From Candidatus Kapaibacterium sp. (GTDB taxonomy: Bacteria; Bacteroidota; Ignavibacteria; Kapaibacteriales; UBA2268), in the NCBI GenBank assembly GCA_963665665.1, contig OY762428.1, forward strand, positions 2,592,001-2,656,000: a DNA stretch of 64,000 nt, written 5' to 3'. The notes beneath the pieces are model-generated. The model had not been told where the DNA came from and made no database searches. It saw only the letters and a list, made by a program, of their open reading frames with translations. A program made the position numbers and the translations under genes. Shown here in pieces: positions 16,942 through 58,394 of this stretch. Position 1 is the first letter of the stretch. Each line of letters begins with the position of its first letter.

Positions 16942-19323
16942 CTATTCCTTCACCACCTTGCAGCTTGAAACAATTTTTCCGCCGGTACTTATCTTCAGTA
17001 CATAAGCGCCGGAAGGGATTTCAGGAACTCTGAACGGTAAGCTGAATGTTCCGGAAGTCAGGTTAGTATAAATTGTTCTGGCGGTTTCTATGCCCTGGAT
17101 ATTATAAAGAACTGCCTGTATTTCAGTTTCGGAGTTATTTTCAAGGACGAATGTGAAACTGTCCCGGAAGGGATTTGGGTATGTGGAAATGTTTTGTGTT
17201 TGGGATAGCTCCTCAATTACAGGGCTTGGATGATCGAAATGGAATTTTGAAAAATACATTTCCCAATCTTCAGTATATTCACTTTGAAATGCATCTTCTG
17301 TTACTGGAAAATTTGGTGATAAAGTCATTCCACCGATAAAATATTCTGTATCATATTTTGCGCCATAAGGCCAAAGTTCCCAAGAACTACCTCCAAGATA
17401 AGTAGCATATTTTATCGTATCACAATTTCGTGATATATCCAGTACAAAAATATCCGGATTTTCATAAATAAAAGGTTCGGTTTTTCCATGTTGGTAAGCA
17501 TCTTCTGTTACTGGAAAATTTTTACCCCAAGTTAACCCGGACATAATGAACCCTCCTGTGTTAGACCATGATATCGATGAACCTCGATCATCACTATTCT
17601 CATCGCCCAATAAATGTACTTTTTTAATATTGTACCTATCATCCATTTCTGCTAAAATTATATCAGCATCCTGAAATCCAACATCTTCTCCTTGAGGAAT
17701 TCCAGGAAATTCACCAGAACGTGTGTAACCATATAATAAGAATGTGGTATCAGACTCTCTAAGAACATTAAATAAAGAATCAGTCTGATTACCACCAAGA
17801 TAACTAAGATAGTTAAGATCATTGAAATCATTACTAATATTGGCAATAATCATATCTGTTCTCATGTTAGTGTTTTCACCATAACCGCCATAAATTGAAT
17901 CTAAGGCATTATTTGTATAAGGTAGGTTATATGAATTCGTGTTACCAAAACAAGTGAAAGAATTATTATTACCTTCAAAGAAATCAACAAAATGAGTATT
18001 ACCCCATCCACCAATACCAATACATCTGTATAGTGAAGTTAGATTTGTATCAAATACAGATATAAAAGATATAAGAGAGTTTGGGCTCTGCTCATGTATA
18101 AAAGTGTTAGTAAAAGGAAACTCAGTACCAAAGCTTTTTACCTGACCTGAAAGTATAACATTATTATCAATAACTTTTATTTTAAAAGGTCGGATTTCTT
18201 TCAATTTACCAAAATGAGTAAAAGCGTATAAAGAATCAAGATTGTTATTAAAACAGGCAATAAAGGCTTTTGGATATTCATCATTCGAAGAATCATACTG
18301 CCCGTCATCGTCATAAGAATCTGTATTTATAAAGAAGTTGGGTAAAGCGCCAACACCTGCTATATATAATTTGTCTTTATGGTAGAATGCAGAATAGGTA
18401 TCGTGAAAAAGACCACCATTACCAAAAAATGTTATTACTTCAAAATCAGCATCTTTATCAAGTTTAAAAAAAATATTACAGTATGAACCTGTCTCATTTT
18501 TTTCAGTATAAGCCCCAGGAGTACCAACAATATCATTACTTTTAGATCTGCCTACAGCATAAATCGTCCCTTCTTTCCCTTCCTCAAGAGCTTGAATCAT
18601 ATCATTACTTCTTCCGCCAAAGTAGGTAGAATACACAAGCGGATCTATCACGAGGGGTAAGTCCGGGTCGTAATTGCCGGGGGAAAGCCCCACGCTGCCG
18701 TCGGTATTTAGTACAAAACGGCAGGGAACAGCGCTAAGGCGGCTGTCGCCTGGCTTACCGCTTTCCTGGTAGGCAAATATCTGCCCGTGTTTTATTTCGC
18801 CGAGGCTTGTGCCGAGTACAAGGCTGCCATCTACATCGATATCAATATAATCCTGGCCGGTGAATTCCATCCTGATATTCTCCGGATCTGCTCCCGGATG
18901 AAGAATAAAGTCATATCTCATACCCGTGGCATCGAAATAATACCTGATATCAGTACCAGGATAAATATCTTTTGCAGTTACGGCAGAGTATGAAGCAACA
19001 TGCTTTGCCCATTTTGTGGGGTCGTTCCCGGTGAAGTAGTTGCGAACAATTTTATTCCTGCCGGATGGAGCAAACTCAGGAACGGCTGAAGTGCCAGCAA
19101 GGCTGCACTTAATAACATGCCCCGCAAGGCTTGTATCCCGCCCGTTTACTTCCATTTTTGAATAATCATAAATCACGCTGCCGGGCATAATCCATGCCGT
19201 CATCCCGGCGCTTTCAGTCTTGTAGCGTACATCCGCATCCCACTGGCCACGGTTCTCGATGAATTCGGAGGCGAAGAGAGGGGATGAGATGAAGATAAAT
19301 AAAAGAATTAATTTTATAGCCAT
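16942..19323 (-). CDS. Secreted SBBP beta-propeller repeat protein with T9SS sorting domain
   Basis: FIENRGQW...DIYPGTD...YDFILHPGADP...LVIDPLVYSTYFGG N-domain; YLSYLGG and T.S.NFPVTEDA repeats; YPNPF...SGAYVLKI CTD. Likely start 19323. Confidence 0.87.
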   Translation of the reverse strand: MAIKLILLFIFISSPLFASEFIENRGQWDADVRYKTESAGMTAWIMPGSVIYDYSKMEVNGRDTSLAGHVIKCSLAGTSAVPEFAPSGRNKIVRNYFTGNDPTKWAKHVASYSAVTAKDIYPGTDIRYYFDATGMRYDFILHPGADPENIRMEFTGQDYIDIDVDGSLVLGTSLGEIKHGQIFAYQESGKPGDSRLSAVPCRFVLNTDGSVGLSPGNYDPDLPLVIDPLVYSTYFGGRSNDMIQALEEGKEGTIYAVGRSKSNDIVGTPGAYTEKNETGSYCNIFFKLDKDADFEVITFFGNGGLFHDTYSAFYHKDKLYIAGVGALPNFFINTDSYDDDGQYDSSNDEYPKAFIACFNNNLDSLYAFTHFGKLKEIRPFKIKVIDNNVILSGQVKSFGTEFPFTNTFIHEQSPNSLISFISVFDTNLTSLYRCIGIGGWGNTHFVDFFEGNNNSFTCFGNTNSYNLPYTNNALDSIYGGYGENTNMRTDMIIANISNDFNDLNYLSYLGGNQTDSLFNVLRESDTTFLLYGYTRSGEFPGIPQGEDVGFQDADIILAEMDDRYNIKKVHLLGDENSDDRGSSISWSNTGGFIMSGLTWGKNFPVTEDAYQHGKTEPFIYENPDIFVLDISRNCDTIKYATYLGGSSWELWPYGAKYDTEYFIGGMTLSPNFPVTEDAFQSEYTEDWEMYFSKFHFDHPSPVIEELSQTQNISTYPNPFRDSFTFVLENNSETEIQAVLYNIQGIETARTIYTNLTSGTFSLPFRVPEIPSGAYVLKISTGGKIVSSCKVVKE

Positions 19324-19396
19324 AACAAAACAAGTTATATGGTCATTTTTTGTCAATAATTCTTTAAAAAAAGAGTACCTTCTAAAAATTTGCATA

Positions 19397-19795
19397 TTAA
19401 TTTAACCATTCTACAATAGGAGGAACAGAAGATAAAATATCAATACAATCCACAGGTGAATAAATTGCATAATGAATAATTTTCCAATCTTTATAAATAT
19501 TTAATGTCATCTCATGAAAATAATTTATGTATGAGGAATTTTCAACTATGAAAAATATTCCAAGAGGTTTTTCCGGATTCCAGATTTTTATAAGATTTCC
19601 TTCATCTGTATTTCTATAACCTAGATGATCATTAAAAGTTATTCTCAATAATATAGATTCAGGCTTTTCTCCTTTAAGCAATATCCTAAATCCTTCATAG
19701 TCATCATGGATTGCTTCAATATACATCTTCTTTTCAATTCCATAGATTGGTTTCCACGGAATCAAAATATTATTTTTATTTTTTGGAATTATCAT
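19397..19795 (-). CDS. Probable immunity protein for the upstream RHS toxin
   Basis: 132-aa AT-rich ORF directly downstream of the toxin ORF; assignment is positional. Confidence 0.65.
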   Translation of the reverse strand: MIIPKNKNNILIPWKPIYGIEKKMYIEAIHDDYEGFRILLKGEKPESILLRITFNDHLGYRNTDEGNLIKIWNPEKPLGIFFIVENSSYINYFHEMTLNIYKDWKIIHYAIYSPVDCIDILSSVPPIVEWLN

Positions 19796-19817: not shown

Positions 19818-20630
19818 TTAATATCTTATTTCTATACCACGTCCACCGCCAGAAGGTCGGATTTCTAATGTTGGTTCACCACTACTACTTCCCGGACGAG
19901 CTGTTACATTCCTACCATCAGGTAATACTCCTGTTTTTCCTTCTCCATGAGGTGTTTCAATCGGCCTTACATTTGAAGGGCTTAATTTATCAAAATCCTT
20001 TGCAGCCTGTTCATATCCTCCGGTTTTGTGTCTTAATGTAGTTTTACCCTTAGTTTGCCTTCCAGGGGTTGAACTGTCAATTAAATCGTCAACCGTTATA
20101 GTATCTTCATTTTCTGCATCACTTTCCGATGTACTCTCTTCAGAATCAATTTCTTCCGACTGTGAATCTTGCATGGTCAATGGTTCAACTGTAACATCTA
20201 CTGTCACGTTATCTTGCCTTGCTTCAGCGAATTGAGGATTTAAAGCAGTTTCATTTGTTATTGGAACCGGAGGCATAGGTTTAATAAAAGTAGAAGGTTT
20301 AACCGTCTGAATAACTTTCGGTGCGGTTTCTATAACCATTCGACCCATTTGCATTACAGGTTCTACTTGAATGGTTCTTGAGGATAAGATAACTGGTATT
20401 AATTGTGAGCCATTCCCATCCTCATACATCAACGGGTTATTGAGACCATACTGATACGGCGACCACTCGTAATAATCTTCCCAGAGCGGGTCAATGCTTG
20501 TGAAGCGCCCCAGGGCATAGCTGTACTTGCGCACGCCAAAGTCTCCCAGCCCGGTTTCAGCATCTTTTTCTTTGCTCCCGACAAGTCGGGATTTCGCAAG
20601 CTCAACAATGAACGATGATTGAAACCACAC
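19818..20630 (-). CDS. Orphan RHS-core fragment with C-terminal toxin domain
   Basis: KEKDAETGLGDFGVRKY...GRFTSIDPLW...SPYQYGLNNPLMYEDGNG RHS core; no YD repeats; compact C-terminal domain ending GEPTLEIR...IEIRY. Confidence 0.8.
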   Translation of the reverse strand: MWFQSSFIVELAKSRLVGSKEKDAETGLGDFGVRKYSYALGRFTSIDPLWEDYYEWSPYQYGLNNPLMYEDGNGSQLIPVILSSRTIQVEPVMQMGRMVIETAPKVIQTVKPSTFIKPMPPVPITNETALNPQFAEARQDNVTVDVTVEPLTMQDSQSEEIDSEESTSESDAENEDTITVDDLIDSSTPGRQTKGKTTLRHKTGGYEQAAKDFDKLSPSNVRPIETPHGEGKTGVLPDGRNVTARPGSSSGEPTLEIRPSGGGRGIEIRY

Positions 20631-20631
20631 A

Positions 20632-20730
20632 ATTTCAAAGAACTGATTGTTTACGCTTTAAGTTAAGCATATTTATTATTATTTCAAAGGGATAATCTAA
20701 TAATTCATCAGCAGCGTAGCCGCAGCATTT
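20632..20730 (-). repeat. Repeated leader module (promoter-like AT-rich stretch plus CAGTTCTTTGAAAT)
   Basis: Related sequence at 21910-21975 (-), 38951-38972 (+), 39700-39766 (+) and 40596-40693 (+). Confidence 0.8.
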
Positions 20731-20747
20731 CCCATTGTATATTCACT

Positions 20748-21647
20748 TTACCATATTTCCCATAACGGTTCTTTTTCCCAATTTTTGGGAAATCCCATCA
20801 CCGTTTTATCAATACCAGGATAATCGGAAAGCAAAGACTGAAGTTTAGATTTAAAAGTATTCCTTGTATGTACTTCATTAAGAATGTATTGCAAAATGCA
20901 AAGCAAATAATAGCTTCTATTGTTATGAATATCCCTGTTTCTTAGCCAGTAAAAATTCTTACTACTCGGAAAAACAGGCCTGATGCCAAGGCTCCTGTTC
21001 CATAAACGCGAATGATGGGCACAAATATTTCTAACATAGCTCAGGCTGTGAAGCCATGATTGTAAAACCGGATACCTAAGTTCGAAATAATCTGCAAGAA
21101 GCTGTTTGTCCGCATTATTTTTCAAATTTGAAAAATGGCGTGAAAGCCTACCGAAACTAAAAATCTCAAGGGCAATCCATGATGGAGGAAATTCAGAATC
21201 CGAATATTTTTCTTTGAAATGTTTGATAAACACTTCGTTCGAACTGCCATATTCTTTTTTAAAGTTTTCAATTGTTTTAAAAAAACAGTCAGAATCTTTG
21301 AACAGGTTTGCATTATGATACCATCCGGGGCCATATTTCTCGACGAGTGATACCGTCAGTCTTGTACGAAAGGCAATTTCAATTCGTTCTATGGCATCGA
21401 ATACCAGAAGCCTTAATTTTCGGTCGAATGAATAATTTCCGAGAATATCTTCGAATTCTGTTCCTATCATAAATTTCTGTCCTGGATCGTTCTTTACCAC
21501 GAACGGATGAAAATATGCACTAAACCTGAAATAACTTACATTTGTAAGAACACTATAAATTATTTCTCTGTCTTTTATAATCAGATTTCGTGATTTTAAA
21601 AGATTAACCTGCTCGGGAATAGTCAAATATGGTTTATCGTATTTCAT
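20748..21647 (-). CDS. Abi family protein (AbiF/AbiD-like, Abi_2, HEPN RNase)
   Basis: KPYLTIPEQVNLLKSRNL, FDRKLR...IERIEIAFR, PPSWIALE, RNICAHHSRLWN (HEPN Rx4H). Confidence 0.92.
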   Translation of the reverse strand: MKYDKPYLTIPEQVNLLKSRNLIIKDREIIYSVLTNVSYFRFSAYFHPFVVKNDPGQKFMIGTEFEDILGNYSFDRKLRLLVFDAIERIEIAFRTRLTVSLVEKYGPGWYHNANLFKDSDCFFKTIENFKKEYGSSNEVFIKHFKEKYSDSEFPPSWIALEIFSFGRLSRHFSNLKNNADKQLLADYFELRYPVLQSWLHSLSYVRNICAHHSRLWNRSLGIRPVFPSSKNFYWLRNRDIHNNRSYYLLCILQYILNEVHTRNTFKSKLQSLLSDYPGIDKTVMGFPKNWEKEPLWEIW

Positions 21648-21658
21648 GGATAATAATG

Positions 21659-21705
21659 AAAAAACCCGCCAGGTTGCGCATCGGGGAGAGGCGTGGCAGG
21701 TATGT
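21659..21705 (-). ncRNA. Structured RNA upstream of abiF (abiF-motif-like, candidate RNA antitoxin)
   Basis: ACCUGCCA...UGGCGGGU stem (G-U pair only on the minus strand), inner CGC/GCG, U tail, preceded by TATATTTG promoter element at 21718-21711. Confidence 0.65.
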
Positions 21706-21821
21706 TATAACAAATATATAATATTTAATTTATTCTTCAAAGATATTTTTCAGATAGTGATACAAACTTCAGGTTTTATTAGTTATTATCAGTCCTTACA
21801 TTTTTAATACTGAAATTGTCA

Positions 21822-21900
21822 AAACCTTCGGAAGCATCCTGTTCAAGAACAATACGATTGATAATACCGGCGATATATAACACAAACCTTCCGAAGGTTT
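21822..21900. repeat. REPIN-like inverted REP doublet (AACCTTCGGAAG...CTTCCGAAGGTT)
   Basis: Further copies at about 38982-39059, 39776-39852, 40432-40510 (degenerate) and 40704-40769. Confidence 0.8.
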
Positions 21901-22079
21901 AATCTGCACATTTCAAAGAACTGATTGTTTACCCTTTAATTTAATCATATTTATTATTTCAAATTCTTTTTCTTCCACGCTGCCTTGGAAGTCAGATCCC
22001 ATGCAAATATACTTTTTAATCACTCTAAGTGTTGCTTAGCGAAAAAGCATTGCGAAGCGGGGCTTCACAACGAGACGAA

Positions 22080-22180
22080 AGCAGCGTAGCTGCGGCATTT
22101 TTGTAGTTCAATAATTAGGAATGAAAACAATAAGCCCCGTAGCTGTGGCATATCTATCTTCTGTCGCTCCTACGGAGCTC
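22080..22180. repeat. GTAG-type REP cluster
   Basis: GCAGCGTAGCTGC, GCCCCGTAG and GCTCCTACGGAGC; inverted counterpart at 40518-40616. Confidence 0.7.
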
Positions 22181-22361
22181 CGGAATTCCTCCATTGCCTA
22201 CCCTGCTTCGTATTTTCTTATGATATCTGCATATCCTGATTTATCGGGGACCTTCAGGAATTCCGCCAGCGGGGCAATTGGACAGAAGAAATTTTAAACA
22301 ACAAATATATTCGCTGAGCAGAAATATTCAAGGGTAAAAATGAAACATCTGTTTTCAAAAA

Positions 22362-23522
22362 TTGATATTTCTTCCGTATATTAGCGAAATTGTATTTTCA
22401 AAGGAAATTTGCGTGGTTGGAATAAGTTATAAAAGAAATGGCAGACTCGGTGGAAGCCGGGCGCATCAGGCACGGCCTGCCGATGCTATACAGTCTTCAT
22501 TTTCAATTATCCATTCTCAATTTTCAATTTTGCCAGGCCGCCAGGGATTCAACGGGATTGTTGAGCGAAGCGAAATCCCGACTGCATTTTCATTCCATAA
22601 ATCTATCGGGAAGAAGGACGACGACGTGAAGAATGGTGAAGGCCAGCACTACGATTTCGGCGCCCGTGCATACGACCCCAGGGTGGGAAGGTGGTATAAG
22701 CTTGATCCAAAAGAAAGTTGTTATCCTGGATTTTCTCCCTATCACTTTGCAGCAAATAACCCAATTATCGTAATTGACCAAGATGGAGAAATCTGGAAAT
22801 TGACTTTTCGTGATGGAGACGATTCAGAGTTGCAAGCTGCTTTTGAATCAATGATTCGAAAAGTTTTTAGTGATAAAGTCATGGCTTTTCCCGCAAACGG
22901 TATTGTGGAGTTAGGATTCGTTGATGAATATACTATTGAATCATTATCTAAAGAACAACAAGAATTATATAATGTATTATTAGATGTAATTAAAGATGAG
23001 GAAAATACTGCTGTAACTCAAATTGTTTATGATGATGATAGATATTATGTTGGGTCTTATCAAAGACAACCGGGGACAGGTGATGGATGGGATGAAAGTA
23101 TAATTGATGTTGCAGACTTGGAACACTATTCTAACAACGATGATGTATTGTTTTATGCTATTGCTGTTTTGGGGCATGAAGTAATTGAAAGTTATTATAA
23201 AGCAACAGAATACGGGGTAGGCACTAGTAGAATAAACGGAAGACCTTTTTATGAGTGGGCTCATAGTGACGCCATTGAGATTGAAGAAAAAATCGGGGGA
23301 TATGAAAGAGTTGGAAATTCTTATGATGGTACAACAACTGGTCCTGATGAAAATCCAAAAATTGAAACCGGGACTTATAAAATGGTCATTCAAACCGGAG
23401 GTGGTTCTTCATTTTGGTCATTCTTTGGTCTTGATGAAAAGCCGGTTTATAAAACAATTGAAACCAATTATAAAGATGGCAAAATTGAAAACGTTACAAT
23501 CAAAGAAGGCGATACAAGATAG
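22362..23522 (+). CDS. Orphan RHS-core fragment with C-terminal toxin domain (possible metallopeptidase)
   Basis: HYDFGARAYDPRVGRWYKLDP...SPYHFAANNPIIVIDQDG core; LGHEVIE...WAHSDAIEIE in the C-domain. True start unclear; homology begins near 22545. Confidence 0.8.
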   Translation: MIFLPYISEIVFSKEICVVGISYKRNGRLGGSRAHQARPADAIQSSFSIIHSQFSILPGRQGFNGIVERSEIPTAFSFHKSIGKKDDDVKNGEGQHYDFGARAYDPRVGRWYKLDPKESCYPGFSPYHFAANNPIIVIDQDGEIWKLTFRDGDDSELQAAFESMIRKVFSDKVMAFPANGIVELGFVDEYTIESLSKEQQELYNVLLDVIKDEENTAVTQIVYDDDRYYVGSYQRQPGTGDGWDESIIDVADLEHYSNNDDVLFYAIAVLGHEVIESYYKATEYGVGTSRINGRPFYEWAHSDAIEIEEKIGGYERVGNSYDGTTTGPDENPKIETGTYKMVIQTGGGSSFWSFFGLDEKPVYKTIETNYKDGKIENVTIKEGDTR

Positions 23523-23547: not shown

Positions 23548-24018
23548 ATGTATAGATTTGTCGGCATTATATGTTTTCTCTTAATAATGATAGGATGCGC
23601 AAAAACCTATGATAAATATACAGATCCGAAGGATTATGTCTTCAAAACCGAAAGAAGAAATATACTTTGGCAATATTACCTTAGTCTTGATGATTGTGCA
23701 AAAGTAGATTTTATTGATTCAATTTATAGGGGTACTGCTGTTACGGATTCAATATCAAATGTTAGGTCACTAATCGATACCAATTTGATCGAACATTCTT
23801 GGACTGGAGAAAATTTTTATTATTGGATATTTAGAGAAATTTTATTAATTACTCGTCATGGCCCTCCGGGTGACTATAATGATTATTTGGGATTTTATTG
23901 TTATGATCCTAATCATCAAGCAGCACCGGGATATGATAACTTTGAAACATTTGATAATGATATAAAAAAGTGGAAAGAAATTTTAAATTGTATTGATACA
24001 ACAACAACGTCAAAATGA
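23548..24018 (+). CDS. Lipoprotein, probable immunity protein
   Basis: Lipobox-like LIMIG-C; immediately follows the RHS toxin. Confidence 0.65.
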   Translation: MYRFVGIICFLLIMIGCAKTYDKYTDPKDYVFKTERRNILWQYYLSLDDCAKVDFIDSIYRGTAVTDSISNVRSLIDTNLIEHSWTGENFYYWIFREILLITRHGPPGDYNDYLGFYCYDPNHQAAPGYDNFETFDNDIKKWKEILNCIDTTTTSK

Positions 24019-37890: not shown

Positions 37891-38940
37891 ATGGAAAAAA
37901 ATTCAAAGATACTGATAGCCGGATACAAGGGCATGGTTGGTTCGGCAATATATAAAACCCTGCAAATCAAGGGATATGACAATTTTATCCTTGCTGATAA
38001 AGATGATGTTGACTTTACAAGGCAGGCCGATACTGAAGAATTTTTCGCGCAGCTTAAGCCGGACTATGTTTTTCTTGCCGCCGCAAAAGTGGGCGGAATT
38101 GTAGCCAATAATACTTATAAGGCCGAGTTTATTTTCGATAATATGTCGATAGCTATGAATATTATCAACTCAGCTAATAAATCGGGCGTTAAAAAGCTGC
38201 TTAACCTGGGCTCCTCATGTATATATCCCAAGTTTGCGCCGCAGCCCATGCAGGAAAATCACCTTCTGACAGGCGAGCTGGAACCCACCAACGAACCTTA
38301 CGCTATTGCCAAAATTTCAGCTATCAAGCTTTGTCGTTATTTCAACGAGCAGTATGGAACTGATTTTATTTCAGTGATGCCTACCAATCTCTTTGGTCTG
38401 AACGATAATTATAACCTGGAAACATCCCATGTGCTGCCGGCATTGATAAGGAAAATGATTCTCGGTAAAGCGCTGAGGAATAATAATTTTGAATTCCTGA
38501 GGGAAGATATTAAAAAGCGCCCCCTGGGATACAAACTGGAAGATAATATCACTGATAATGATTCTATTGTTAGTGCGCTGGCAGAACTCGGGATAACAGC
38601 CGAATATGTAAAAATTTGGGGAACCGGCAAAGTTATGCGAGAATTCCTCCACGCTGACGATATGGCAGCAGCCTGCGTTTTTCTGATGGAGAATAAATCC
38701 TATGATGAAATCGGTGAATTTGTAAATATTGGTACAGGCGAGGACTTGTCGATTGCTGAGCTGGCGGAAACTATTCAAAAAGTTACTGGATACGAAGGCG
38801 AACTTCGTTTCGATGCCGATAAACCGGAAGGAACTCCCCGAAAATTATTGGATGTCAGCCGTATAAAATCTCTTGGCTGGAAACCTGAAATTAGCTTAGA
38901 GGAAGGTATCGGGAAGGTTGTGGGAAGCTATCTATCATAA
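37891..38940 (+). CDS. fcl: GDP-L-fucose synthase
   Basis: [51 protein letters not shown]. Confidence 0.96.
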
Positions 38941-38950
38941 AATGAAAATG

Positions 38951-39069
38951 AATCAATCAGTTCTTTGAAATGTGCGGTTTTAACCTTCGGAAGGTTTGTG
39001 CTAAATATCAGCGGTATAATCAATTGTATTGTTCTTGAAAAGGATGCTTCCGAAGGTTCGGGTAGGTCG
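38951..39069 (+). repeat. boxA-like motif plus REPIN-like doublet
   Basis: CAGTTCTTTGAAATG followed by AACCTTCGGAAGGTT...CTTCCGAAGGTTCGGGTAGG. Confidence 0.8.
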
Positions 39070-39174
39070 GGCATGACTATTCCCTGCAAAGATTCGGCAT
39101 CGTATAGTGTGAATACAATCTATATAGATACAACTAGAGATTCATAAAAAAGAATTAAGGAAGAGGAAGATAAT

Positions 39175-39552
39175 ATGTTTTTTCCATATCTGCATAAGAA
39201 AATAATTAAAATATTATGTGAGAGAAATAAACTTAGAGAGATAGAAGATAATTATTTTGATAGTATAATTTTAGTTTTTGAATACTCTGAATTTATCTTG
39301 TTAGAGGTTGACTATGATCATGATGAGATCGTAATGCAGGAAATAGATAATATTCCTACTAATATTGATTATGTCACATATTATCCAACTTTTGCAAAGG
39401 ATAGAGAATTAAAATCGGTTTGGGTTTGTAGAGGTATTTACGAATGTGATGATTTGCTCCTTCTCGGTATTAATAAGTCTTTACCAAATTTCGCTATATA
39501 TTCTTCATGTGAAGGATTGGAAATATTTGAAATAAATTTGAATAAATTATGA
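39175..39552 (+). CDS. Hypothetical protein (possible orphan immunity protein)
   Basis: Strong RBS (GAGGA), acidic 125-aa AT-rich ORF inside the repeat island. Confidence 0.65.
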   Translation: MFFPYLHKKIIKILCERNKLREIEDNYFDSIILVFEYSEFILLEVDYDHDEIVMQEIDNIPTNIDYVTYYPTFAKDRELKSVWVCRGIYECDDLLLLGINKSLPNFAIYSSCEGLEIFEINLNKL

Positions 39553-39579
39553 AATTAATTATAAAATTACGTATACTTT

Positions 39580-39696
39580 ATCTCATCCCCTCTCTTAGCC
39601 TCCGAATTCATCGAGAATCGTAGCCAGTGGGATGCGGATGTACGCTACAAAACTGAAAACGCCGGGGTGACGGCATGGATTATGCCCGGCAGTGTG
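39580..39696 (+). pseudogene. 5' fragment of an SBBP/T9SS gene
   Basis: ATCTCATCCCCTCTCTT...GGATTATGCCCGGCAG closely matches the reverse complement of about 19175-19291. Confidence 0.85.
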
Positions 39697-40005
39697 GCAG
39701 GGAAAAGAATTTGAAATAATAATTCATATCTTAACTTAAAGGGCAATCAATCAGTTCTTTGAAATGTGCAGATTCAACCTTCGGAAGGTTTGGGTTAAAT
39801 ATTGCCGATATTATCAACGGCAAAGTTCCTGAACAGTAACCTTCCGAAGGTTCGGGTAGGTCGATTATGGCTTAAATATTTTACAAATTTCTTTGCTGAT
39901 TTATCATATTGATGTCCAATAATTTATTGGAAATATTTGATATTATATCTATATTTATTGTAATATTCTGATGAATCCGGTGTCTTCATTTAAAAAGGAG
40001 TTATT

Positions 40006-40230
40006 ATGATTACAAATCTGACAGCAGTGTACAAAAAAGTAACCGAAGGTTATATCGGCTATGTTGAGGAGTTGCCGGGTGCTAATGCTCAGGGCCTTAC
40101 GCTTGATGAGGTAAAACAGAATCTGAGGGAAGCCGTACTGCTTGTTCTTGAAACTAACCGTGAGATCAGCAGGATTGAAACCCCGGAGAATCCGGAATTT
40201 GAAGAGACTTTCAGTTTAAGCATGACATGA
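40006..40230 (+). CDS. hicB: HicB-family antitoxin (short form)
   Basis: GYIGYVEELPGANAQGLTLDEVKQNLREA. Confidence 0.88.
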   Translation: MITNLTAVYKKVTEGYIGYVEELPGANAQGLTLDEVKQNLREAVLLVLETNREISRIETPENPEFEETFSLSMT

Positions 40231-40421
40231 AAAGGAAGAAGTTCCTGAAATACCTGCTTTCTCTTGGTATTGTATTGCACAGAGAGGGAGGCAATCATTC
40301 TGTATTTATAAATCCCATTGCAAAAAGAATATCAACAGTTCCGCGACATAATGAGATTAACGACTTCCTTATTAACAAAATTTGCCGGGACCTTGATATT
40401 CCTGCTCCAACTAAGCGTTAA
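40227..40421 (+). CDS. hicA: HicA-family toxin
   Basis: REGGNHSVF...STVPRHNEI...ICRDL; ATGA overlap with hicB. Confidence 0.9.
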   Translation: MKRKKFLKYLLSLGIVLHREGGNHSVFINPIAKRISTVPRHNEINDFLINKICRDLDIPAPTKR

Positions 40422-40635
40422 TTCACGGCTTGACCTTCCGATGGTTTGTGTTATATATTACCGGTATCATCAATCGTGTTGTTCCTGAACATGAACCTTC
40501 CGAATGTTTTGCCATTCAGCTCCGTAGGAGCGACACAAAACGAAATGCCGCCCCTACGGGGCTTATACATGTGATTGGGTAATAAATACTACAAAAATAC
40601 CGCAGCTACGCTGCTGATGTATTATTAGATTACCC

Positions 40636-40993
40636 CTTTGAAATAATAATAAATATGCTTAATTTATAGGCAGGCAGGCAGTTCTTTGAAATGTTGCGGT
40701 TTCAACCTTCGGAAGGTTTGTGTTAATTATTAACGGTAAAGTTCCTGAACAGGAACCTTCCGAAGGTTCGGGTAGGCCGATTATTGCTTAAATATTTTAC
40801 AAATTTCTTTGCTGATTTATCATATTGATGTCCAATAATTTATTGGAAATATTTGATATTATATCTATATTTATTGTAATATTCTGATGAATCCGGTGTC
40901 TTCATTTAAAAAGAGTTATTATGATTACAAATCTGACGGCAGTGTATAAAAAAGTAACCGAAGGTTATATCGGCTATGTTGAGGAGTTCCCGG
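40636..40993 (+). repeat. Direct duplication of about 39710-40078 (leader, REPIN and hicB 5' end)
   Basis: 39871-40073 and 40787-40988 are nearly identical; the second hicB (ATG 40921) stops matching after about 24 codons. Confidence 0.9.
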
Positions 40994-41292
40994 ACGCTAT
41001 ACAAATGTTCAAAGGCAAGTTGGCCGTAAAACTCTCTTGCAGCCTTATCTTTGATTGGTATCATGGTTAGAAAATGAGACCATGACAATTGTCGTGACAG
41101 CGTAGCGACAATTTGTTTGCCATATTCTGCTCTTTCTGATTTTAGTTCGAAAGTCAGAATTTTGTAGCCAATTTGCCAGAATAAAATGGTCAACGAACTA
41201 TTCACAGTCGAAACAACATATTGCTTTGATTTTTCTATGAGCGCAATAATGTCGCTAATCAAATTCTTGGAATTATGTTTATTATCTGCCAT
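40906..41292 (-). pseudogene. Truncated DUF1016/YhcG-like gene (N-terminal part)
   Basis: VNSSLTILFWQIG...RAEYGKQIVATLSRQLSWSHF...AREFY; homology ends at the hicB duplication; nuclease domain missing. Confidence 0.8.
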
Positions 41293-41480
41293 CTTGATAC
41301 TCTCCTCATCAATAAATTTATCATAATTTTCTTCAAGTCCGATAAGACCAGATATTCAATACATGCCAGTGCATTACTCGCCGGAATTCCAATTATTCCC
41401 TCTTGCCCCCGACAGGTCGGGGCAGGGCGGGTGGCGAGCGCAGCGATGCGGGGTGGATATACCCTGTTATTGAAGATTTC

Positions 41481-41654
41481 TCAAATTTCACCGGTTACTT
41501 TCAATATTACAACTGTAATTCCCATAATTACAATCCAAATAAAGAGTCCAAGAAAAAATTCACTTATTGAATCTTCACGATGGTCATAAACTCCTCCTTC
41601 AAAACCGGAGAATATCCACTTAAAAAATGCTGCAATTGTATTGATACTATCCAT
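41481..41654 (-). CDS. Small membrane protein (possible immunity protein)
   Basis: MDSINTIAAFFKWIF... with a C-terminal TM; ATG 41654 overlaps the stop of the upstream remnant. Confidence 0.5.
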   Translation of the reverse strand: MDSINTIAAFFKWIFSGFEGGVYDHREDSISEFFLGLFIWIVIMGITVVILKVTGEI

Positions 41655-42097
41655 CACTATTATCCTCTGATTTGTTCTCATTCTTTTTGTTATCTTTAAC
41701 CTTATTTGAAGTTTCTTGAAGAATATCAGCAGCGTCTTCACTACGACTTTTTGTGTTTGAAATCTTTAAAATTTTTTTCATTTTCTTGAAACTTATTCCA
41801 AACATCATTAATGTTCGACTTGGCAGGTTTAGTTTTAGTAAGTTTACAATAATTCAAGAAACATTGAAGAATAGTTTTTCCTTTTACAGCAACAACTTTT
41901 AATCCATTTTTCATAATATCTCCAACTGGAACACTCGTAGCAAAAGCAGCAACTCTTTCGTTTCCATTCACACTGTTTCCCCCACCATCGTAACCAGAAA
42001 CTGCTTTATATGGATCATCAATTACAGAATACAATACTGAAGCAACAAACTTAGAAACTGCTTCAGGAGCATCTTCTGAATCAGATTTTAACTTTCC
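41647..42097 (-). pseudogene. Polymorphic-toxin C-terminal remnant (pre-toxin TG-like motif)
   Basis: DPYKAVSGYDGGGNSVNGNERVAA resembles pre-toxin TG; no proper start; possible frameshift in the A run near 41775. Confidence 0.45.
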
Positions 42098-42108
42098 TTA
42101 TTTTCAAT

Positions 42109-42142
42109 ATCACTATCCCGGGTATAAGCCCGGGATAGTGAT
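42109..42142. terminator. Perfect 14-bp hairpin after the slipin gene
   Basis: ATCACTATCCCGGG-N6-CCCGGGATAGTGAT. Confidence 0.65.
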
Positions 42143-42179
42143 TTGCAATAGTATATATTTTGGATGAACGATAATAGTC

Positions 42180-57666: not shown

Positions 57667-57784
57667 CGATTACTTACCAAACATAGATTTCTTCTTTATT
57701 TGCACTCATAACCAACAACACCTATCCGGCTTTGCAGCCGGATTGTTTTTTGATAAATAGCCAGAGTTCCGGGCTGTCTTTGCC

Positions 57785-58093
57785 TTCCCCTGTGCTTTCC
57801 GAGTGTTTCCTCATGCTTTCCGAGCGTTCCCCCGTGCTTTCCGAGCATTCCCTCATGCTTTCTGAGCGTTCCCCCGTGCTTTCCGAGCATTCCCTCATGC
57901 TTTCCGAGCGTTCCCTCATGCTTTCCGAGCATTCCCCCGTGCTTTCTGAGCATTCCCTCATGCTTTCCGAGCATTCCCTCATGCTTTCCGAGCATTCCCT
58001 CATGCTTTCTGAGCGTTCCCCCGTGCTTTCTGAGCGTTCCCCCGTGCTTTCTGAGCGTTCCCCCGTGCTTTCTGAGCGTTCCCCCGTGCTTTC
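57785..58093. repeat. 21-bp minisatellite, about 14.5 units
   Basis: Unit TGCTTTC(C/T)GAGC(A/G)TTCCC(TCA/CCG); TGCTTT recurs every 21 nt from 57793 to 58087. Confidence 0.95.
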
Positions 58094-58394
58094 GTAATTA
58101 TTATTTTGGACATAATTTAGCTCAGATAAGGGACAGTGTGTATCTATAGATATTACGAAAGCAATATCAGGAGCAGTTGAATTGTAAAATATTCCGGGAT
58201 TACGATTTTTAAGTATCATTTTTTATTAAAATGGTTTAGATGTTTCGGAGAATATAAACATAATATTGCCGGAAGCAAGGGTAAATAATAATTATAATGC
58301 TGAGAGTTGCTTCTATAAAACGGAGTGTCTGGATTGATAACGAAATAAAGAATAATATCGGGAACTTAATCATGTTTCCTGATATTTGCAGGGC

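Follow-up and report, generated by a model that had tools for sequence, protein, structure and literature searches.

Repetitive extragenic palindromic (REP) sequences and REPINs, which are associated with RAYT transposases (TnpA-REP), are palindromes of 20-50 nt that are mostly intergenic, non-autonomous, arranged in mosaic clusters and sometimes found in frame within genes (PMC3733652). Strand-specific processing of single-stranded DNA (ssDNA) is described for TnpA-REP, and the spread of REP-like repeats is still considered poorly understood (PMC8266576); in Bacteroidetes, RAYT subclasses 2.4 and 2.6 are reported, the latter with atypical hairpins (PMC6006769). The SRM/NTS/dRS3 repeats, served by the GIY-YIG nuclease Ssn, are directional ssDNA hairpins with a conserved non-palindromic 5' part, and dRS3 has the core ATTCCC-N8-GGGAAT (PMC11893778). 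Rickettsia palindromic elements (RPE) are palindromic inserts that lie in frame in unrelated proteins (PMC3733652). RHS toxins are known for C-terminal displacement, in which tips are swapped by recombination in the core, and for orphan modules composed of a truncated core, a tip and an immunity gene (PMC5727410, citing Jackson 2009 and Koskiniemi 2014). Here we examine a 64,000-nt stretch of Candidatus Kapaibacterium sp. (contig OY762428.1, positions 2,592,001 to 2,656,000; hereafter the window), in which two orphan RHS genes each carry a short palindromic insert within the core. The inserts belong to an element that is real, mobile-looking and a REP-like miniature. We consider it probable that this is a widespread, non-coding, non-autonomous mini-element of two hairpins, and that the two inserts are passengers and markers of core exchange, not its cause.

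Insert 1 (30 nt, 20576..20605, minus strand) and insert 2 (51 nt, 22561..22611, plus strand) both have ATTG directly 5' and both end in TCGGGA, as an earlier note on this DNA had described them, and both lie in frame within a TIGR03696 RHS core; the window contains the full motif twice, and 0 of 100 shuffles contain it. Hairpin A is TTGAGC-TT-GCGAAA in insert 1 (20605-20592) and TTGAGC-GAA-GCGAAA in insert 2 (22561-22575), the loop being GAA in the latter and a TT variant in the former. Hairpin B of insert 1 is TCCCGA-CTTG-TCGGGA (20591-20576), and the second part of insert 2 consists of TCCCGA (22576-22581), a 24-nt loop and TCGGGA (22606-22611). The RHS homology is indeed lost shortly upstream, at about 7 nt in the first gene (locus 1) and 22 nt in the second (locus 2). 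The same note had placed both inserts at one position of the core; insert 1 interrupts the Gly codon of F-I-G ahead of KEKD, and insert 2 the Glu codon of F-N-G-x-E ahead of KD, so that the sites are two codons apart.

A filled and an empty allele prove the insertion. Protein P0049 carries the 17-residue insert of locus 2 and equals its paralog P0050, found on the same contig as the window and without the insert, over 23 residues upstream and, bar one residue, over about 75 downstream. P0050 reads GFNGMEKDDDVK, with M and not I at the position before Glu. The GFNGIEKD that removal of insert 2 leaves is thus not the normal core start that had been supposed, and no register of clean excision yields the M-E allele. 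Among 153 cores examined, 92 have a single residue at this position (K 45, M 39, Q 7, S 1), with I in 0 of these 92 regular cores but in one irregular core, P0191; two carry the insert (P0048 and P0049), and 59 have variant motifs, lack F-N-G or lack an anchor. The printed rows of this comparison hold no further insert at the locus-2 place. Since P0050 reads M and I is absent from regular cores, at most a part of the ATTG at locus 2 is original target, the rest being a product of the insertion event or of a neighbouring mutation. For locus 1, no full-length parent was found among 17 longer candidates, and the empty allele is therefore taken from homologs, in which the Gly position is G in 18, D in 14 and S in 2 (n=34).

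The element extends far beyond this organism. Its pattern is TTGAGC-N2/3-GCGAAA followed by TCCCGA-loop-TCGGG[A/G], and GTDB, scanned for the 5' portion of this pattern, gives at least 135 distinct copies in at least 124 loci of at least 77 genomes; the counts that follow refer to the matches listed. Downstream, 101 of the 135 copies have TCGGG[A/G], 15 have a looser end and 19 have none, the last being probably mostly chance matches. Full-length copies are present in at least 57 genomes of about ten phyla, and the genome titles include Bacteroidota, Planctomycetota, Poribacteria, Desulfobacterales, Zixiibacteriota, Ignavibacteria, Neomarinimicrobiota, Cloacimonadota, Patescibacteria, Verrucomicrobia and Clostridia. 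Most copies are intergenic, often within other repeats. A sibling of the form CCTG[C/T]CCCGA..TCGGG[A/G] is present in 13 of 125 loci and also in the window at 41426-41407. Head-to-tail arrays of the element and a short spacer are seen at L005:6001-6135 and in loci L017, L018, L041, L055, L070 and L115, and several array loops enclose a nested GA-GC-GNA-GC-GA hairpin. Plasmid and phage collections returned chance-level matches only. No description of the element was found in the literature searched, though a repeat catalogue among supplementary data may contain one.

Comparison with the described systems places the element near REPs, as it behaves like a REP or RPE insert and is a short, multicopy, mainly intergenic palindrome, but outside the GTAG/CGTC type. 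GTAG or CGTC is found in the 6 nt 5' of 0 of the 135 copies and at neither window copy; the element comprises two tandem hairpins whereas a REP has one, and it crosses phyla whereas REPs are clade-confined. An ssDNA stage, which the element would share with REPs, is suggested by its fold, as discussed below. With the Ssn substrates it shares directionality and the conserved non-palindromic 5' part, and its hairpin B resembles the dRS3 core; yet the window has no match to the degenerate SRM pattern, which is also absent within -40..+90 nt of all 135 copies. Like RPEs it can be read in frame in unrelated proteins, but it is cross-phylum, mostly intergenic and shorter than RPE-1, which measures about 150 nt. 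As small non-autonomous mobile DNA it also recalls miniature inverted-repeat transposable elements (MITEs), from which it differs in having ends (TTGAGC and TCGGG[A/G]) that are not inverted repeats, no obligatory target duplication and a length far below 70 nt.

The ends of the element are confirmed by its insertion sites, in that tandem tracts and hairpins of the host become whole again once TTGAGC..TCGGG[A/G] is left out. Of 76 sites, 17 lie within 7-9-nt tandem tracts, compared with 20 among up to 2000 control positions. Insertion into hairpin loops was also considered and found weak (9 of 76 sites versus 117 of up to 2000 controls). The 5' flank is biased, with A at -3 in 75%, A or T at -2 in 79% and G at -1 in 72%, and neither the two window sites nor most of the GTDB sites show a target duplication. 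In hairpin A, whose loop was left unconstrained in the search, GNA accounts for 86 of 125 three-base loops and for 49 of 75 when counted per genome, where chance predicts 1 in 16. GCGNAGC is an exceptionally stable DNA mini-hairpin, formed only by GNA loops, and such mini-hairpins are missed by standard parameters (PMC13037366); ViennaRNA does not predict hairpin A, and the available text of PMC4690160 does not mention GNA loops. The enrichment of GC-GNA-GC points to a single-stranded DNA stage, and the flanking GA/GA could form tandem sheared pairs.

A gene that might provide the mobility was sought near the copies. Neither Y1_Tnp nor GIY-YIG was found in 300 ORFs (open reading frames; 150 of the 152 nearest and 150 of 295 further small ones, with the GIY-YIG scan covering those of at least 70 aa), and thus neither a RAYT gene nor an adjoining ssn gene; Y1_Tnp was likewise absent from the 37 window proteins scanned. 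A motif search gave four GIY-YIG candidates, none of which passed Pfam, and the near-copy genes of note are one four-helix-bundle and two PDDEXK_3 proteins only. The proposal of a REP-like element, possibly moved by a RAYT/HUH transposase, stands in its first half; no RAYT/IS200 gene lies near any copy among those searched, and action in trans is possible. We give a mover of either HUH or Ssn type about even odds. In the mechanism that we favour, the element would be copied as ssDNA by an enzyme encoded elsewhere, either an HUH/RAYT-type transposase or an Ssn-type GIY-YIG nuclease together with repair. What the sites show is insertion without obligatory target duplication, only weakly favouring A-W-G immediately 5' and mostly between genes, often in other repeats, the copies seen in genes being multiples of three. 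The window would then record two independent insertions into purine-rich RHS core starts, in repeat-rich islands under weak selection. Ordinary recombination in the core, on the downstream side of each insert, may subsequently have put each insert-bearing core onto different tips.

Movement without any dedicated enzyme, through slippage during replication or a template switch from one hairpin-rich ssDNA region to another, together with gene conversion that drags short donor flanks, is unlikely in our assessment. Dragged flanks would account for the ATTG common to both inserts and for the unclean locus-2 junction with its one-base change, and both the lack of a linked enzyme in the 300 ORFs and the head-to-tail arrays of element and 7-mer at L005, L017, L018 and L041 agree with such a process. 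Constant ends, a fixed hairpin orientation and the 5' A-W-G bias in about ten phyla nevertheless suggest recognition by a protein, and the presence of the element in distant phyla requires a route of transfer.

The element might alternatively, though improbably, be directed to RHS core starts in this lineage, serving as a cut or recombination mark for tip cassettes, and the earlier note had advanced both the targeting and the mark. In its favour, both full window copies lie in RHS cores, both follow ATTG and both are multiples of three, and all orphan 5' ends examined adjoin a repeat. An unrelated 11-residue insertion is, moreover, present elsewhere in the RHS core of P0042, a peptide compatible with another mini-palindrome family. 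Outside the window the targeting fails, as 0 of the 135 copies lie in an RHS core. When 48 RHS proteins were compared by tblastn with 839,447 nt of loci, 1 of 124 loci matched, at 5.4 kb from the element, and a second RHS-like motif in that locus, 2.2 kb away, has no Pfam match. ATTG precedes 2 of the 135 copies (1 of 62 per genome) and is rejected as the target. Peptides encoded by the element are present in only four of the 205 proteins compared (P0001, P0002, P0048 and P0049), apart from two short chance-like matches.

A general bias to multiples of three does not hold: the raw count is 54 of 101, but 26 of 55 per genome. Outside genes, 21 of 50 genome-length classes are multiples of three (p 0.23 versus one third). 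Twenty-two reading frames cross a copy; six have Pfam support, five of them with a full-length copy, and the sixth was left out of the count because its end is loosely defined. The five hosts are HsdR, an ABC ATPase, an E2 linker, a phosphoesterase and a Mur ligase, with inserts of 36, 33, 39, 33 and 33 nt, so that multiples of three are found in 5 of 5 genomes within genes against 21 of 50 elsewhere (Fisher p 0.019). For HsdR a homolog lacks the stretch, although, this homolog being distant, a 13-residue gap faces a 12-codon insert. The bias thus survives inside genes of any kind and not elsewhere, which argues that an in-frame length is an ordinary survival filter in genes.

The distribution of tips bears directly on the proposed mark. 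The insert-1 peptide recurs in P0002, which has the leader, the insert and 20 core residues in common with locus 1 but a different tip; P0003, P0044 and P0046 share the downstream core. P0049 and locus 2 have the insert and the residues after it in common, and the type of the P0049 tip is that of P0050, the longer paralog that lacks the insert. Within each of the pairs P0001/P0002 and P0048/P0049, insert and core are common and the tips unrelated. Copies that share an insert remain the same for a stretch beyond it and differ only farther along the core. The exchange points, including the tip junctions of both pairs, thus fall on its downstream side, in the manner of C-terminal displacement (PMC5727410). 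Nor is the 5' truncation linked to the insert: breakpoints range from about 3 to 23 codons upstream, and P0049 keeps 23 RHS codons there. With the two sites also two codons apart, these observations make a role as recombination or excision mark improbable. Because the element occurs in many unrelated bacteria and at many kinds of site, the inserts look like passengers and not like a toxin-swapping signal.

Retention as a functional RNA or regulatory hairpin (a terminator or mRNA stabiliser) that tunes orphan expression from RHS genes is very improbable, for although most copies are intergenic and REPs are often transcribed (PMC3733652), the window and nine loci give no match at the Rfam gathering score, the description of GNA triloops is that of a motif in DNA (PMC13037366), neither insert has a U-tract terminator, and the sites are sporadic and not conserved.

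Several observations also weigh against the passenger reading. Both full window copies (2 of 2) lie in RHS cores, which the weak flank motif alone does not predict, as 13% of window positions match it equally well and the window has 903 ATTG; the likely reason is the repeat-rich island context. The locus-2 junction is one base off the empty allele in any register, and this genome is absent from the GTDB matches listed. Part of the tandem-tract counts may stem from later duplication of element and spacer. Covariation in hairpin B is seen in one sibling only (CCCCGA/TCGGGG), because the search pattern fixed the stems. Finally, the 300 ORFs hold no mobilising gene, so that the mechanism is one we infer.

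Both host genes are orphan RHS modules, with a core-associated domain above the TIGR03696 cut-off and no N-terminal repeat region; unlike the orphans described previously, they lie in repeat-rich islands, carry a mini-insert in the core and have 5' ends fused to repeats, the DNA upstream of both cores being repeat and not RHS. Locus 1 is a 270-aa ORF of core remnant and tip 1 (19818..20630, minus strand; TIGR03696 45 bits) with its GTG start within the upstream repeat. Tip 1 weakly resembles CdiA/MafB-type clusters, and a probable immunity gene (19397..19795, minus) is assigned from its position only. A dispersed composite repeat of 118 nt (20613..20730, minus; 85% identical to 40595-40711) joins the RHS remnant directly, some 7 nt upstream of insert 1. 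Locus 2 (22362..23522, plus; 41 bits) has RHS homology from 22539 and a tip 2 that resembles HEXXH metallopeptidase (Peptidase_M91-like) clusters; position and N-terminus suggest a probable lipoprotein immunity gene at 23548..24018 (plus). Neither putative immunity gene has a family match. The locus-2 leader contains a degenerate CC-GA/TCGGG palindrome (22235-22248) and an imperfect 7-mer tandem tract (22499-22531). Between these two divergent genes sit an AbiD/AbiF-family gene (20748..21647, minus) and, upstream of it, an Rfam abiF RNA (21664-21700, minus), together spanning 20748-21700, and a REP-like doublet repeat with AACCTTCGGAAGGTT arms (21823..21984, minus; z -3.95) that has four relatives at 38933-40768. 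The nearest named RHS matches are labelled Chlorobi, Kapaibacterium or Bacteroidetes.

Dispersed repeats cluster at 19-23 kb and at 38-41 kb of the window, and the genes of both inserts lie in an island dense with such repeats and gene scraps. The second island (38930-42170) holds the four AACCTTCGGAAGGTT doublet repeats, a HicAB-like pair, an RHS tip remnant, a shortened HicB-like copy joined to a DUF1016 scrap and, in inverted orientation, a 149-nt piece of the gene at 16942-19395; a short inverted repeat, CACTATCCCGGG..CCCGGGATAGTG, lies at its edge (42109-42142). The palindrome noted at about 41408-41421 beside a third toxin remnant is present and is part of the sibling insert, CCTGCCCCGA-N4-TCGGGG with loop CCTG (41426-41407, minus), within a hairpin repeat (41397..41471, minus). 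Its neighbour is a third RHS tip remnant (41481..42097, minus), fragmented, without core and 60% identical to P0052. The same hairpin repeat forms the N-terminal leader of the orphan P0049, there with 7 extra residues compared with 41397-41471, a stretch that may represent another TCCCGA/TCGGGA insert, outside the RHS core. Elsewhere in the window, a tandem row of six nearly identical ORFs (938-2240, plus; 57-61 aa, 224-nt period), all of which have a leader of their own, has no Pfam family and is possibly a peptide-precursor array; a 21-nt-period array lies at 57727-58135 inside an ORF without a clear family, and type IX secretion system (T9SS) sorting domains occur among the window proteins.

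A broader reading, possible but doubtful in our view, is that the element represents an undescribed minimal class of mobile DNA, a 30-nt two-hairpin ssDNA element built on GC-GNA-GC. It would insert without duplication into repeats and genes, nest in and beside its siblings and be moved by an enzyme other than the known RAYTs and Ssns; together with host repeats it would, in this lineage, also cut and seed the islands in which orphan toxin cassettes collect along with scraps of defence genes.

The idea of a targeted mark for swapping toxin tips, the more exciting of the claims, is not upheld. With 30 nt, fixed ends, a DNA-specific fold, a filled and empty pair and an occurrence in many phyla, the element lends itself as a substrate in the search for the enzyme. 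Unrelated proteins gain 10-17 residues from it, and it can give rise to false N-termini in annotation. For the biology of RHS, it serves as a neutral tag of core exchange among orphan cassettes.

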